A stretch of DNA of 64,000 nt from positions 35,458-99,457 of the forward strand of contig CADCUM010000027.1 in assembly GCA_902805885.1 (NCBI GenBank), given 5' to 3'. The notes beneath the pieces were generated by a model. The model was given only the letters and a program-made list of their open reading frames with translations. It was not told where the DNA came from and ran no database searches. Positions within the stretch are counted from its first letter, which is position 1; each line of letters starts with the position of its first letter. Origin of the DNA: an uncultured Nocardioides sp. Lineage in GTDB: Bacteria > Actinomycetota > Actinomycetes > Propionibacteriales > Nocardioidaceae. The position numbers and the translations under genes were made by a program. This document shows, in pieces, positions 56,635-60,256 of the stretch.

Positions 56635-56839
56635 GGGCGTGGTCCTCGCTCGAGGTCAGGTGCTGCGGACGACGCCCCGGACGAGCGACTCGTGCAGCCT
56701 AGGCGAGGGGGTCCACCTGGGCACCGCCCCGTGGGAGGTCTTGTCGCGGTCGGGTGGCACGGGCGGGGGCGTGTGCGACGGATGGCGCAGAAGGGGGCCG
56801 GTGCTCTGCGTAGGGCGGACCGAGCGGAGGACTAAGCCC

Positions 56840-56859
56840 ATTCCGCCGCCTGTCGGCGC
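56840..56859 (+). repeat. intergenic motif, copy 1
   Basis: attccgccgcctgtcggcgc; 17/19 identical to 58305-58323. Confidence 0.6.
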
Positions 56860-56988
56860 GGCTCGAACATCCGGACGTGCCGGTGCGCTCACGTACCGCG
56901 CTTCTTGTCGCGTCCCACCTGGCCACGCTCGCCTGCGCGCCGACCTCGGCGGAATCGGACGTCCTACAACCTGACGTATCGTCGATGG

Positions 56989-57609
56989 ATGGACCCTCCA
57001 GAGCGGTTCCACCGCGTCCAACATGAGTCGTTGGAGCTGGGCTCGCCACGCGGGCTGACTTGGAAGGTCCACTCGGCCTGGCGACGTCGGGGTGCCGTCA
57101 TCCTCTCGGCACTGGTCGGTGTTGCCGGCGGTGCCGCGGCGGTCCTGACGTGGGAAGGGCGGTACGACGATCGACCATCCGAGAGCCAGCGGTCGGCCCG
57201 TACTGCGGCCCAGGAGACCCCGGTGAGGCTGGTGCTGGGCGGCGTGTCGTCAGGGGCGCCTCGAGGCGGCTACCTGTCCGTCGAGGCTGTGCTGCTGCAC
57301 GACCGGGGAACAGGCACTGCGACAGTGAGGCGGATCCATCGGCCCGGCACGAGCCTTTCGATCCGAGTTCCTGAGCTACCGGTGACGCTCTCCGCCAACC
57401 ATCCCTACGAGCGAGTGCACGTCCGCATAGCCCCCCGAGACTGTGTGCTCGCGACCGTGTGGACCCCAAGCGCCCAGCCGCTGACGCTCAGCTGGGAGGA
57501 CGAGCACGGAACCCTTCGATCGGGCATCGGCGGCGACCATGATGCCCCCATCGAGTTGTCGCTGATCCGGCACATGAGTGCCGTCTGTGATGACCCACCC
57601 GAGCAGTGA
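56989..57609 (+). CDS. membrane-anchored hypothetical protein
   Basis: RRRG followed by a TM, then a beta-rich domain with two Cys; atypical codons. Confidence 0.65.
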   Translation: MDPPERFHRVQHESLELGSPRGLTWKVHSAWRRRGAVILSALVGVAGGAAAVLTWEGRYDDRPSESQRSARTAAQETPVRLVLGGVSSGAPRGGYLSVEAVLLHDRGTGTATVRRIHRPGTSLSIRVPELPVTLSANHPYERVHVRIAPRDCVLATVWTPSAQPLTLSWEDEHGTLRSGIGGDHDAPIELSLIRHMSAVCDDPPEQ

Positions 57610-57712
57610 GCCGGCCCGAGCCGAACCGAACAGCGTCGCCGACGTCCGCAGTGGCGACGGCGACGTCCGTCGGAGGGTGGGATGTATCGGCCGTTGCTGC
57701 GGCTGGAAGTGA

Positions 57713-57736
57713 GTGCGTCGTACCGCCGCACGTCGG
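57713..57736 (+). repeat. intergenic motif, copy 2
   Basis: gtgcgtcgtaccgccgcacgtcgg; 20/24 identical to 58297-58320. Confidence 0.65.
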
Positions 57737-57860
57737 ACATCCGGAAGGGCCTCCCTCTGTTTCGAGAAGGCCGGAGCTCCGGCGGCGATGAGCGTGGTCG
57801 ACGTCGGATACGTTGAGCATGACGTCCCTCGATCGGCTCGGAGCTTCGGAAGGCGGTGAC

Positions 57861-58265
57861 ATGGAGCGCGTGACCGGCATCGGCGGCTTCTTCTTCAAGA
57901 CGAGCGACCCGGACCGCAGCGCAGCGTGGTACGCGAAGCACTTGGGAGTCGAACCGCCTCCGCCTTCATACGAGACGTCTTCGTGGTGGCAGGAGTCAGG
58001 TCCCACTGTGTTTGCCGGGATGCCGATGGGTTCCGACCACTTCGACGGCGCGGAGCGTTCATGGTCGATCAATTTCCGAGTTGCCGACCTCGACAAGATG
58101 GTCGACCAACTGCGTAGGGCAGGGGTAGAGGTCGACGTGGACCCCGAGGAATACCCCAACGGCCGGTTCGCGAACCTTCGCGACCCAGACGGCAACGGCG
58201 TTCAGCTCTGGCAGGCTGCCGGAGCCGACGCCACGGGTCCCGTCTCGCGCGCAGCGCTCGACTGA
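57861..58265 (+). CDS. VOC/glyoxalase family protein
   Basis: MERVTGIGGFFF, INFRVADLD and GRFANLRDPDGNGVQLW. Confidence 0.9.
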   Translation: MERVTGIGGFFFKTSDPDRSAAWYAKHLGVEPPPPSYETSSWWQESGPTVFAGMPMGSDHFDGAERSWSINFRVADLDKMVDQLRRAGVEVDVDPEEYPNGRFANLRDPDGNGVQLWQAAGADATGPVSRAALD

Positions 58266-58296
58266 GTGCCCATGGACGGCTCAACTGCCGCGATGG

Positions 58297-58323
58297 GTGC
58301 GTCTTACCGCCGCCTGTCCGCGC
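58297..58323 (+). repeat. intergenic motif, copy 3
   Basis: gtgcgtcttaccgccgcctgtccgcgc. Confidence 0.65.
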
Positions 58324-58378
58324 CCGCCAGTATCGGATCCCTCGCTGTGGGGGTCGTCGGCCAGATGCGGTTTCGAAC

Positions 58379-58681
58379 GTGACCAACGGCTCGGTTGACG
58401 ACCTACTCCGATTGCTGGCCGATGCGGTGAAGCTTCTGGAAGGGTCCGGCGAGGAGCACTGGGCGGCTTCGCTGCGACACGACCTGGACCGCCTGACTCG
58501 GGGCGACGGGTACGCGGTCGATCACCTTCTGAATGGATACGGCGGAATGGGCAGCATCAACGACGTGGTGATCAGCCCGCACAACGGTCACGGAGCCAGC
58601 GAAGACGACGGCGAGGTGGCCACCGCTCGGTTGCGAACGCTGCTCAGCACGATCTACGACAACGCGAAGGACCTGCGGTAA
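58379..58681 (+). CDS. small helical protein with GGMGS.ND motif (DUF6966-like)
   Basis: GEEHWA...YGGMGSINDVVI. Confidence 0.7.
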   Translation: MTNGSVDDLLRLLADAVKLLEGSGEEHWAASLRHDLDRLTRGDGYAVDHLLNGYGGMGSINDVVISPHNGHGASEDDGEVATARLRTLLSTIYDNAKDLR

Positions 58682-58771
58682 CCATCGGATCGGCCACGAT
58701 GCGGGGGTTGTCCAGGTCCGTCTTGTCGCCGCGTTTGCACCCCTCGCCCTGCCCACGACCCGGTCGACCCC

Positions 58772-60256
58772 TCAGGACGCGTCGAGGTCCAGCCCTGCGT
58801 CGGTGTAGTAGATCTCCACGCCGTCCGACGCGGCGCCTGCCATGAGGTCGCCCTGACCACGGGTCAACCGGTGCGTGCCGCGGTGGTCGACGAGGTACGC
58901 CTGGCCGTGCGGGGTGCGCCAGAGATGGCGTCCTGGTCCGACCACCACGCAGCGGTAGCCGCCGCGGGTCTTCCAACGATGGTGTCGGCGGCGCAGCGGG
59001 CCACTGTTGTGGGGCCCGGTCTGGCCGGGTGGGCCGCCCTTGTCCGGCGGGACGTAGGGCCGGACGTGGTCGAAGTCGACGGCGTTCCGGGTCGCGGTGC
59101 GAGGGCTGTAGGGGAAGACGTCTCCGCCGGTCTGGGTCCAGACGTGGTCCTTGACGACCTCGGGGTGCTCGTAGGCGTCGGCCCGGCGCCGCATCGCGAG
59201 GTCGAGGACCGGGGTGACGGTGACGTCGGCGTGGCCGAGGACCTCGTGGAGCTGGGCGACCGGGACGGGGCCGACACCCTCGACGCGGGCGAGCCCGACA
59301 CCCGACCGCAGGGCGGCGTCGGTGACGTGGACGAACAGCTGGCCACGCCCGCGCAGGCCCGCGAGCCGGCGAGCGGGCAACGCGCAGAGACGCGTGACCG
59401 TGTCGCTCAGGTGGTCCGGCGCCCAGGCCGGCTGGACGGGAGCGTCGGTCTCCGGGTCGACCTCGGGCCGGGTGTGCTCGAGCAGCAGCCGGAGCAGGTC
59501 GACCGGCCGGGCCAGCCAGCCGAAGGCCAGCGAGCGGAGCTCGTCGCGGTTGTGGCTCAGTCGAAGCGGTCGCCCGTCGACTCCGGGCTCGTCGGCGAGG
59601 ATGTCGGCGACCCGGTCGACCATCGCGTCGACCCAGGCGGCGTCGCCGGCCGTGATGCGGCTGATCACGCACCGGTAGCCGAACTCGTCGGCACGCGAGA
59701 GGGTCACGTAGCGCTCGTGGCGGGATCGTTCCCGCTCCGCTGCATGGGTCTGGGGGTCGGCCTCGACGACCTTCGCCCGGGCGATCTCCAGCACCGTCGA
59801 GGGGGAGTGCCCGCCGATCGCACGCGCCACCGCGGCGTCCACCACCGGCACCACCTCCGACAGCAGCCCCCGGGAGAGCACGGCGACCTTGCGGGCCACC
59901 CACGGCTCGCACTCACCGGACCGCACGATCGCCCACGTGCGGGGCAGGCGGTGGGCCAGGTCGAGGGCGTCGGCGACCAGGGCTCGCGTCGTCATCGCAT
60001 GCGTCTCACGCGCCATCGCCAGCTCCGGCACGGCGTACTCGCGCACCTCCGGCGTCCCGTCCCCACCCGGGGTCACCATCGGGTCCCGCTCGTCAGCGGG
60101 ACGACCGTGCACGACCGCCCACTGCAACGCCAGCTCCAGCTCGGCCACCTCCGCCAGACGACGCGCCCGGAGCGCTGCGGTCGCTGCGGCCAACAGGCCC
60201 GACGCGGCGAGCTCGTCGACCGCCGGCTGTGGCAGGTCGCGAGAGGCAGCGGGCAT
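58772..60256 (-). CDS. DUF222 (13E12-like) / HNH endonuclease-like protein
   Basis: [24 protein letters not shown] and DAYEHP; C-terminal DFDH...[12 protein letters not shown]...WRTPHG. Confidence 0.85.

Follow-up and report, generated by a model that had tools for sequence, protein, structure and literature searches.

Co-oriented arrays of a ~28-bp site, linked to a small tyrosine recombinase, point to a possible gene-cassette system in Nocardioides and related Actinomycetota

The stretch of DNA analysed here (the window) comprises 64,000 nucleotides from an uncultured Nocardioides sp. (contig CADCUM010000027.1) and carries, between pepN and a DUF222 gene, three small genes on the + strand. 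The first (56905..57609, with a start at 56905, 56986 or 57024) encodes a small membrane-type protein without a Pfam family, the second (57862..58265, alternative start 57819) a VOC/glyoxalase-family enzyme (Pfam Glyoxalase, 3.3e-11), and the third (58379..58681) a DUF6966 protein (Pfam DUF6966, 4e-17). A preliminary description of the region had called these genes foreign-looking, and their GC3 values of 0.66–0.80 (the second gene having 0.66), against 0.95 for pepN, bear this out; the array as a whole has a GC content of 66.7%, compared with 72.2% for the window.

Each of these genes follows one copy of a short motif, here termed box A, whose consensus of ~28 bp consists of a left arm (TGCGTCaTwCC), a centre (GCCGCc) and a right arm (TGTCGGcgcg). 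Three copies in the window are clear and share one orientation (T0 at 56834, 57714 and 58298); all are on the + strand, where the preliminary description had placed them, and a decayed fourth copy lies at 58717. Site 1 (56834..56861, +) forms the left end of the array and has the box A centre (GCCGCC) and right part (TGTCGGCGCGG) only, its left arm (AAGCCCATTCC) being the recurrent variant xxCCCATTCC. Site 2 (57714..57741, +) reads TGCGTCGTACC GCCGCA CGTCGGACATC, and site 3 (58298..58325, +) reads TGCGTCTTACC GCCGCC TGTCCGCGCCC. The decayed site 4 (58717..58744, +), at the right end of the array, comes directly after gene 3 and 28 nt before the stop codon of the convergent DUF222 gene; it has kept TCCGTCTTGTC GCCGCG, thereby meeting the left-arm-plus-centre pattern at one mismatch, and its right arm is unrelated. 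The right arm of box A is variable in general and its symmetry with the left arm is weak, and its conservation is over-stated, since most loci were retrieved with patterns that include it. A looser second box, box B (approximately CCGGAtCTGCCGAtGAGcG), often lies ~20 nt 3' of box A and is present after many copies elsewhere. In the window it occurs at 56867..56890 (+, acatCCGGAcgTGCCGgTGcGCtc) after site 1, at 57781..57797 (+, ggcGGCGATGAGCGTGG) after site 2, where it is displaced by ~35 nt, and in a weak form at 58331..58351 (+, tatCGGATCcctcgctgtgg) after site 3. The string 'acatccgga' that had been noticed behind the first two copies was confirmed and forms part of box B; an instance also lies at 57737-57745, by site 2.

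A degenerate pattern built from the three copies themselves gave three matches in the 64-kb window, where 0.12 were expected, and none of 100 shuffled windows contained three or more. Because this pattern was derived from the copies it detects, the independent support for the motif is a scan of the 3.1-Mb genome, which returned only two other strong copies (and one weak one), located among small genes at the start of contig C30, with the PWM score falling from 26.7 to 19.7 below them. Homology to relatives across pepN ends at window 56650-56709, at least 125 nt before site 1, and the island's left edge thus does not fall exactly on a site; to the right of this end, no synteny was found in relatives. 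For cassettes 2 and 3, the 400 genomes searched yielded distant homologs only, without sites.

Box A is not confined to this locus. At up to two mismatches, matches occur in 82 of 121 Nocardioides genomes, partly by chance; those within the genus are about four times as numerous as in a reversed-pattern control (from a table summed by eye), and the left arm and centre alone gave 264 sites in 944 kb, compared with 53 in the reversed control. The motif is additionally found in Marmoricola, Aeromicrobium, Terrabacter, Pedococcus and Jiangellaceae, in a patchy phyletic pattern and invariably within low-GC3 accessory DNA. Matches in other phyla and in viral contigs were attributed to chance or to coding sequence, the reverse complement encoding the P-loop PTGGGKT. 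Neighbouring sites within 10 kb of each other share the same strand in 45 of 46 pairs (P ~7e-13), at a median spacing of 1.65 kb. The longest array noted (in G137) comprises ~18 sites over ~86 kb, all on one strand, and ~13 sites are spread over 5 loci in G085, a complete genome. The units between sites mostly measure 0.4–3 kb, some holding several genes. Further copies had been anticipated to cluster in variable regions of related genomes, and they do so in large number, in low-GC3 DNA and co-oriented.

The genes between sites face either way: the coding strand downstream of box A is + in 19 cases and − in 28, and in one locus (L199) the gene runs against the site in five of six one-gene units. 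Box A is accordingly not a promoter or leader. The preliminary description had proposed one motif before each gene, which applies to the window and fails as a general rule; its view that the motif fits a recombination site better than a promoter held, since neither the distance to gene starts nor the gene strand is fixed relative to the motif. We therefore consider it highly improbable that box A is a regulatory element of acquired genes, be it an operator, an alternative-sigma promoter, a 5' leader or the start of a small uORF (..ASFRRLSA..). Such a role would fit the window, where all three copies stand upstream of co-oriented genes and where copies 2 and 3 also allow a reading as short ORFs whose ends reach or overlap the start of the following gene; in L022 the array comes after an ECF sigma gene, and the variant box A in front of the recombinase gene described below could serve as an autoregulatory operator. 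However, the strand of the flanking genes is unrelated to the site, the distance to their starts varies, no Rfam family matches, and the co-orientation of sites irrespective of gene strand would be left unexplained. Several specific versions were also examined and rejected. As a protein-coding motif, box A has invariant third positions (CGC CGC, never CGG; GCG, never GCC) and many copies without a start codon, so that selection does not act on the peptide. For an RNA element, Rfam gave no match, the minimum-energy folds differ among copies and the helix between boxes A and B is without covariation. The spacing misfits PafBC-type, sigma-28-like and ECF-type promoters or operators, and box A shows no relation to gene strand; the ECF promoter motif of the window itself differs from box A. 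A tRNA- or tmRNA-derived repeat was likewise dismissed, as no box A has a tRNA-like Rfam match, and the sole tRNA that Rfam found, in L022, is 6 kb distant.

Comparison with a metagenome contig (L223) placed a joint inside the motif. Positions 56844-57704 of the window match positions 1236-2137 of that contig at 83%, and the homology begins at position 10 of box A, i.e. at the centre of site 1; the left arms and the DNA before them show no relation, and the two contexts have different neighbours. The contig encodes an 84%-identical cassette 1 protein flanked by its own box A sites, and its box B is conserved with that of site 1, which travels with cassette 1. In another locus (L227), an 80% DNA homolog of cassette 1 is followed by a box A site. 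Other mosaic joints have the same character: L023 and L152 have only the right half of box A and 160 nt downstream in common, while L063 and L136, as well as L092 and L113, share the upstream gene and box A and diverge immediately afterwards. A breakpoint of gene gain or loss within the motif, as the preliminary description had envisaged, is thus present for cassette 1 itself. Ends of HSPs are enriched ~2.5-fold near sites, many of these ends being gene ends. Public biocrust and soil metagenome contigs aligned to the window, all of them short, showed no joints at sites and were uninformative in this respect. Neither excised circles nor empty sites were seen, and recombination was not caught directly.

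Joints of this kind could also arise if box A were an element independent of any recombinase (structural, REP-like or protein-binding) and units were exchanged by homologous or illegitimate recombination at 23–28 nt of identity, a reading that we regard as improbable. It draws on the placement of joints, which is no finer than 'within the invariant part' of box A, on the modest enrichment of HSP ends and on the imperfect inverted repeat that boxes A and B form together. Their helix is 79% paired, with an alifold energy of −1.7 kcal/mol and no covariation beyond that of shuffles to support a hairpin. Strict co-orientation across whole contigs is predicted by conservative site-specific insertion and unexpected otherwise, and a recombinase gene with a cognate site at fixed distance also argues against a passive element, as does the lack of any Y1/HUH (RAYT-type) gene in six genomes. 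A HUH/RAYT enzyme was rejected as a candidate in its own right, PF01797 not being found in G000 and five other site-bearing genomes, three of which are 99–100% complete.

The candidate enzyme is an arm-less tyrosine recombinase of ~305 aa, 80–94% identical across genera. Clustering of the proteins neighbouring box A revealed no dominant partner, and the recombinase ranked third among the clusters; it is present in 7 of ~80 motif loci and in ~22 of 120 genomes, outside prophages, as a module of ~1 kb embedded as one unit within arrays. Wherever its gene and box A were both mapped in a locus, the two have the same orientation, and in 15 of 18 cases a left-arm-plus-centre site, a variant of box A, lies at −110 to −132 of the gene, the chance of such an upstream site being ~0.007 per locus (our estimate from the control rate). 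In L210, this site is a 7-bp perfect inverted repeat (TGCGTCC...GGACGCA). The homology between L198 and L199 extends from the recombinase-upstream site to the recombinase stop codon, so the module ends at its own stop codon rather than at a site; a standard box A follows 0.9–3.5 kb 3' of the gene in at least 10 genomes. A recombinase in or beside the arrays, which the preliminary description had proposed to look for, is thus found together with its cognate variant site. Within 304 aa the protein has the Pfam domains Phage_int_SAM_1 and Phage_integrase and no arm-binding domain, and its catalytic R, K, HxxR, H and Y align with the XerD structure 1a0p; it looks active and is phage-like. It scores under the XerC/XerD equivalog cut-offs and reaches 47 bits against a cut-off of 265 with the IntI model NCBIfam TIGR02249, over residues 226–284 at the C-terminus only; classed by these models, it is neither XerC/D nor IntI. 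Identity to 'tyrosine integrase' genes of Arthrobacter and Gordonia phages is 50–52% over 95% of the length. At E ≤1e-30, no Mycobacterium phage homologs were found, Brujita itself being absent from the matches; Arthrobacter phage MidnightRain has no box A by its homologous integrase, and the plasmid collection searched gave no homolog. At the same threshold, the family comprises 2,685 clusters at 90% identity, annotated solely as 'XerD' or 'integrase'.

The gene for the ~305-aa recombinase was not found in the window genome (78% complete), so we treat the window array as recombinase-less. The preliminary description had assumed a recombinase acting in trans, and the result fits either this or a fossil array. 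Recombinase presence correlates only loosely with site counts. Some insertion sequences are known to target integron attC or dif sites, and the arrays might similarly be driven by another enzyme (host XerC/D or an unlinked recombinase), with the ~305-aa recombinase being a parasite element that targets the sites; we think this unlikely. Both the complete genome G085 and G000 contain arrays with only two tyrosine recombinases, Xer-like in both and in G085 taken to be XerC/D; the recombinase occurs in just ~20% of genomes, its module is a single embedded unit, and the 11-6-11 layout of the site is dif-like. On the other side, the recombinase's own site, always at much the same distance from the gene, has precisely the left arm and centre in common with box A, an enzyme acting on all such sites is the simplest reading, and the patchy phyletic pattern speaks against a purely host-driven process. 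Box A is also unlike the proposed actinobacterial dif, that of Frankia quoted in PMC3025954, the resemblance to its XerC arm being limited to GCCGAT in box B. The earlier hint of a XerC arm survives in the arm/centre/arm layout and the Xer-like enzyme and not in the sequence. A dif/Xer site was rejected on this dissimilarity and because a dif-like pattern was not found in G000 (78% complete). A large serine recombinase was discarded as well: G000 and G081 have none and those of G085 are >80 kb from the arrays; in G137, one lies 2 kb beyond an array.

Taken together, we propose that box A is probably the core recombination site of a family of gene cassettes moved by the small arm-less tyrosine recombinase, in line with the cassette-capture interpretation of the preliminary description, which these data support. 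In this model, (i) two recombinase-binding arms would flank a 6-bp crossover centre (TGCGTCaTwCC / GCCGCc / TGTCGGcgcg), and we infer that the ~305-aa recombinase cuts and joins box A, the crossover presumably falling within GCCGCC; (ii) a cassette would pass through a circle, and circular DNA with a box A would recombine with a resident site; (iii) each insertion would yield two hybrid sites in direct orientation, repeated insertions producing one-directional arrays; (iv) the upstream unit would own the left arm, and the downstream unit the centre, right arm, spacer and box B; (v) some units would be autonomous, carrying the recombinase gene and its own variant site 110–132 nt upstream, whereas most units have cargo only and would be moved in trans. 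The window would accordingly represent a recombinase-less array of three single-gene units (membrane protein, VOC enzyme and DUF6966 protein) closed by a decayed site. The broader proposition is that soil Actinomycetota (Nocardioidaceae, Intrasporangiaceae and others) possess an integron-analogous capture system, in which a phage-derived arm-less recombinase, very widespread in metagenomes, inserts and excises cassettes at a double-stranded site of ~28 bp, with arrays of up to ~86 kb and cassette exchange between genera; for this we see the balance as even.

Integrons are the textbook platform of gene capture. Should box A and the recombinase function in the proposed manner, a large group of soil bacteria would have a separate solution, based on a simple Cre/Xer-like enzyme and a short double-stranded site, which would explain part of the accessory-genome mosaicism in Nocardioides and its relatives. 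It would also provide a rule for delimiting cassettes of uncharacterised function in genomes and metagenomes, and genetic tools for high-GC hosts could draw on a new and compact pair of recombinase and site. The recombinase family, with its 2,685 clusters, offers a concrete and testable handle. We found no published description of box A arrays in the literature searched.

Among known systems, accretion islands such as the tycheposons of Prochlorococcus, SCC composite islands and ICE/CIME arrays likewise grow by repeated insertion at one type of site, with tandem units between direct att repeats and recombinase-less beside autonomous units. However, the box A repeat is not the 3' end of a tRNA or other gene, the enzyme is a small tyrosine rather than a large serine recombinase, and the arrays occupy many chromosomal places instead of one attB. 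The pdif modules of Acinetobacter plasmids also have ~28-bp arm/centre/arm sites that bound modules of accessory genes, and, as in other Xer-exploiting elements, no dedicated recombinase is required beside each module. In contrast to the alternating orientation of pdif sites, those of box A are co-oriented (45 of 46 pairs), and the arrays are chromosomal and linked to a dedicated non-Xer recombinase. The enzyme itself resembles simple integrases of the IntBrujita type in its length of ~300 aa, in having core-binding and catalytic domains only and in the simple core-type site adjoining its gene. In the account of PMC8138268, which cites Lunt & Hatfull 2016, a related phage integrase of this simple kind is described as arm-less, promiscuous and without directionality, and by analogy such an enzyme would suit the shuffling of cassettes. 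Unlike these phage integrases, the box A recombinase resides in cargo arrays rather than a prophage, and its ~50%-identical homologs come from Arthrobacter and Gordonia phages, membership of the Brujita subgroup itself being no more than a possibility. There are also parallels in organisation with integrons, which are reported to be all but absent from Actinobacteria, complete ones being lacking (PMC9024848). Both systems have one-directional arrays of short sites separating unrelated accessory genes, and a tyrosine recombinase gene with a special adjoining site; many box A arrays are, like CALINs, without a nearby recombinase, and, as in chromosomal integrons, arrays can be large and their cargo consists of small genes of uncharacterised function. 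In contrast to attC, box A is conserved in sequence over ~28 bp and has neither RYYYAAC/GTTRRRY ends nor hairpin covariation, in agreement with the earlier statement that the sites lack attC ends, and the enzyme fails the IntI model. Whereas integron cassettes have co-oriented genes and a site 3' of the ORF, box A units carry genes in both orientations and may hold several, and their recombinase gene lies inside the arrays, in the same direction as the sites.

Three copies of a site of about 28 bp, here termed box A (left arm, 6-bp centre and right arm), lie on the + strand where the preliminary description had located them (T0 at 56834, 57714 and 58298; sites 1 to 3), and a degenerate pattern built from them has 3 matches in the window compared with 0.12 expected. 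The array formed by the sites lies between pepN and a DUF222-like gene and consists of three single-gene cassettes; the first encodes a small membrane-type protein that belongs to no Pfam family, the second a VOC/glyoxalase enzyme and the third a DUF6966 protein. The GC3 of these genes (0.66-0.80) contrasts with that of the adjoining pepN (0.95), and the GC content of the array (66.7%) with that of the window (72.2%). The window belongs to contig C27 of an assembly that comprises 3.1 Mb with 72.7% GC and is 78%-complete. The only other strong copies in this assembly, two plus one weak, lie at the start of contig C30, also between small genes; in a whole-assembly scan, PWM scores fall sharply below the copies of the window and C30. 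In site 1 the right arm is standard and the left arm a variant; in a decayed fourth copy (58717-58744) the left arm and centre are standard and the right arm is unrelated. This is the pattern to be expected at the termini of an inserted array. Homology of the pepN region with eight relatives ends at 56650-56709, and no synteny to the right of this point was found among them. The bordering DUF222-like gene (58772-60256, - strand, 494 aa) is multicopy: a second copy (83%) lies in the same genome on contig C119 (58043-59262), copies of 65-75% occur at non-syntenic places in many relatives, and copies or fragments lie between a few hundred nt and about 5 kb away from box A sites in four genomes (G085, G115, G064 and G102).

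Alignment of copies from relatives defines a 23-nt core with sharp edges, TGCGTC-a-T-w-CCGCCGC-c-TGTCGG, followed by a weaker cgcg on its 3' side and unconserved flanks. Many copies are followed about 20 nt downstream by a looser motif, box B (CCGGAtCTGCCGAtGAGcG), which contains the acatccgga noted earlier. With up to 2 mismatches, box A matches occur in 82 of the 121 sampled genomes of the genus, the matches being roughly four times as numerous as those of a reversed-pattern control (table summed by eye), and also in records of Marmoricola, Aeromicrobium, Terrabacter, Pedococcus, Jiangellaceae and Propionicimonas. Matches in other phyla and viral contigs were rejected as chance or coding, since the reverse complement encodes a P-loop. 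In Nonomuraea, one conserved locus (L062, L074, L075, L100, L121, L130, L156, L165 and L178) has GTCCTTCCGCCGCATGTCGG within more than 80 nt of conserved sequence; this is unrelated to the arrays and may be a conserved non-coding element.

Box A sites lie in low-GC3 accessory DNA, frequently close to contig ends, with varied cargo (RHS protein, LysM proteins, TraG-like coupling protein, MFS transporters, a regulator, histidine kinase, monooxygenase, sugar epimerase and many unknowns) and a median spacing of 1.65 kb; one Nocardioides genome carries about 18 sites across about 86 kb, plus more arrays on that contig, all on one strand. Neighbouring sites share their strand in 45 of 46 pairs (P ~7e-13), whereas the coding strand downstream varies (+ in 19, - in 28), and in one array 5 of 6 one-gene units are anti-oriented to the site. 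Conservative site-specific insertion, when repeated, produces such co-orientation regardless of gene strand, and the varying strand of the downstream gene argues that box A is not a promoter, leader or terminator. All arrays of a contig share a single strand in G085:C1, G090:C1, G141:C8, G081:C1, G137:C7 and G139:C8, the first four genomes being complete. Against the mapped positions of dnaA and the rRNA operons, the top strand of box A is the lagging-strand sequence in 8 loci, not in 2 and unclear in 3, which hints at a replication-related orientation bias. In one locus (L022:224-6683, from G014:C8), a tRNA gene, an IS481-family transposase and an ECF sigma factor, the last accompanied by a 398-aa partner unassigned to any family, lie ahead of the array. 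Directly upstream of box A in L063, L136, L152, L199 and L108 lies a gene for a protein of about 95 aa without a Pfam family (ending ..DWWERGAFRER), with 5-30 nt separating its stop codon from the site.

The core translates in one frame as ..ASFRRLSA.., and a peptide reading was considered. However, synonymous third positions are invariant and many copies lack a start codon, and selection therefore acts on the DNA. Short ORFs opened in frame by sites 2 and 3 (VSASYRR.. at about 57709-57817 and MGASYRRLSA.. at about 58293-58382), of which the former stops 1-3 nt short of the ATG at 57819 and the latter overlaps the DUF6966 GTG start (GTGA), are judged a by-product. Box B forms an inverted repeat with the right half of box A (79% paired), but an RNA element was rejected, since this repeat shows no covariation and an Rfam search of box A loci gave no match to the motif.

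The strongest case for a joint comes from metagenome contig L223, which encodes a protein 84%-identical to the product of cassette 1. DNA homology spans window positions 56844-57704 and begins exactly at the box A centre. Right arm, spacer and box B are kept, and there is no relation between the left arms or the DNA upstream of them; the L223 homolog is flanked on either side by sites of its own, and its neighbours differ from those in the window. Three more pairs share either the right half of box A and downstream DNA, or the upstream gene and box A before diverging. The enrichment of HSP ends near sites is only modest (about 2.5-fold); no recombination event was seen, and the public contigs aligned to the window have no joints at the sites.

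A candidate enzyme is a tyrosine recombinase of about 305 aa, found in 7 of the roughly 80 loci selected by the motif and, within the genus, in about 22 of 120 genomes. Its copies are 80-94% identical, even between Nocardioides and Terrabacter, and conservation between loci is limited to the gene itself and some 130-170 nt in front of it. At a distance of 110-132 nt upstream from codon 1, 15 of the 18 copies have a same-strand site that combines the left arm and centre of box A (chance ~0.007 per locus, estimated from the control rate) with a right arm that differs from that of box A; in some copies this arm, TGCGGACGCA, forms a perfect 7-bp inverted repeat with TGCGTCC. In the light of these upstream sites, box A can be read as a core site of the classical kind, in which the centre GCCGCc would be preceded by a left arm of 11 bp and followed by the right arm TGTCGGcgcg; the GGCGC of the right arm is imperfectly complementary to the left-arm GCGTC. 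In at least 10 genomes, the gene is also followed at 0.9-3.5 kb by a standard box A site. At L094:5920-5990, three box A copies of 27 nt each (GTCATACCGCCGCCTGTCGGCGGCCGT) stand in tandem about 200 nt upstream of a truncated recombinase gene. No copy of the gene was found in the genome of the window or in the complete genome G085, though both hold arrays; recombinase-less arrays are either fossils, or were moved in trans during past co-residence, or are another enzyme's work.

The recombinase has core-binding and catalytic domains only, and every XerD catalytic residue aligns. It scores far under the XerC, XerD and IntI model cut-offs. Tyrosine integrases from Arthrobacter and Gordonia phages share about 50% identity with the recombinase, which belongs to a very abundant family (2,685 clusters) with generic annotations only. 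Arthrobacter phage MidnightRain encodes two tyrosine integrases (genes 38 and 42), an arm-less one of 306 aa (52% identical to the array recombinase) and one of 379 aa. We found no description of the box A and recombinase pair in the literature searched, which is not proof of novelty. By membership tests, the system is not an integron (Actinobacteria have been reported without complete integrons, PMC9024848), nor a pdif module, a tRNA-att island, an SCC-type array or a REP/RAYT element. The architecture of the recombinase is that of the arm-less 'simple' actinophage integrases, the best-studied of which is described, in a work cited in PMC8138268 (Lunt & Hatfull 2016), as directionless and promiscuous. 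In its working, the box A system would resemble, by analogy, an integron or an accretion island.
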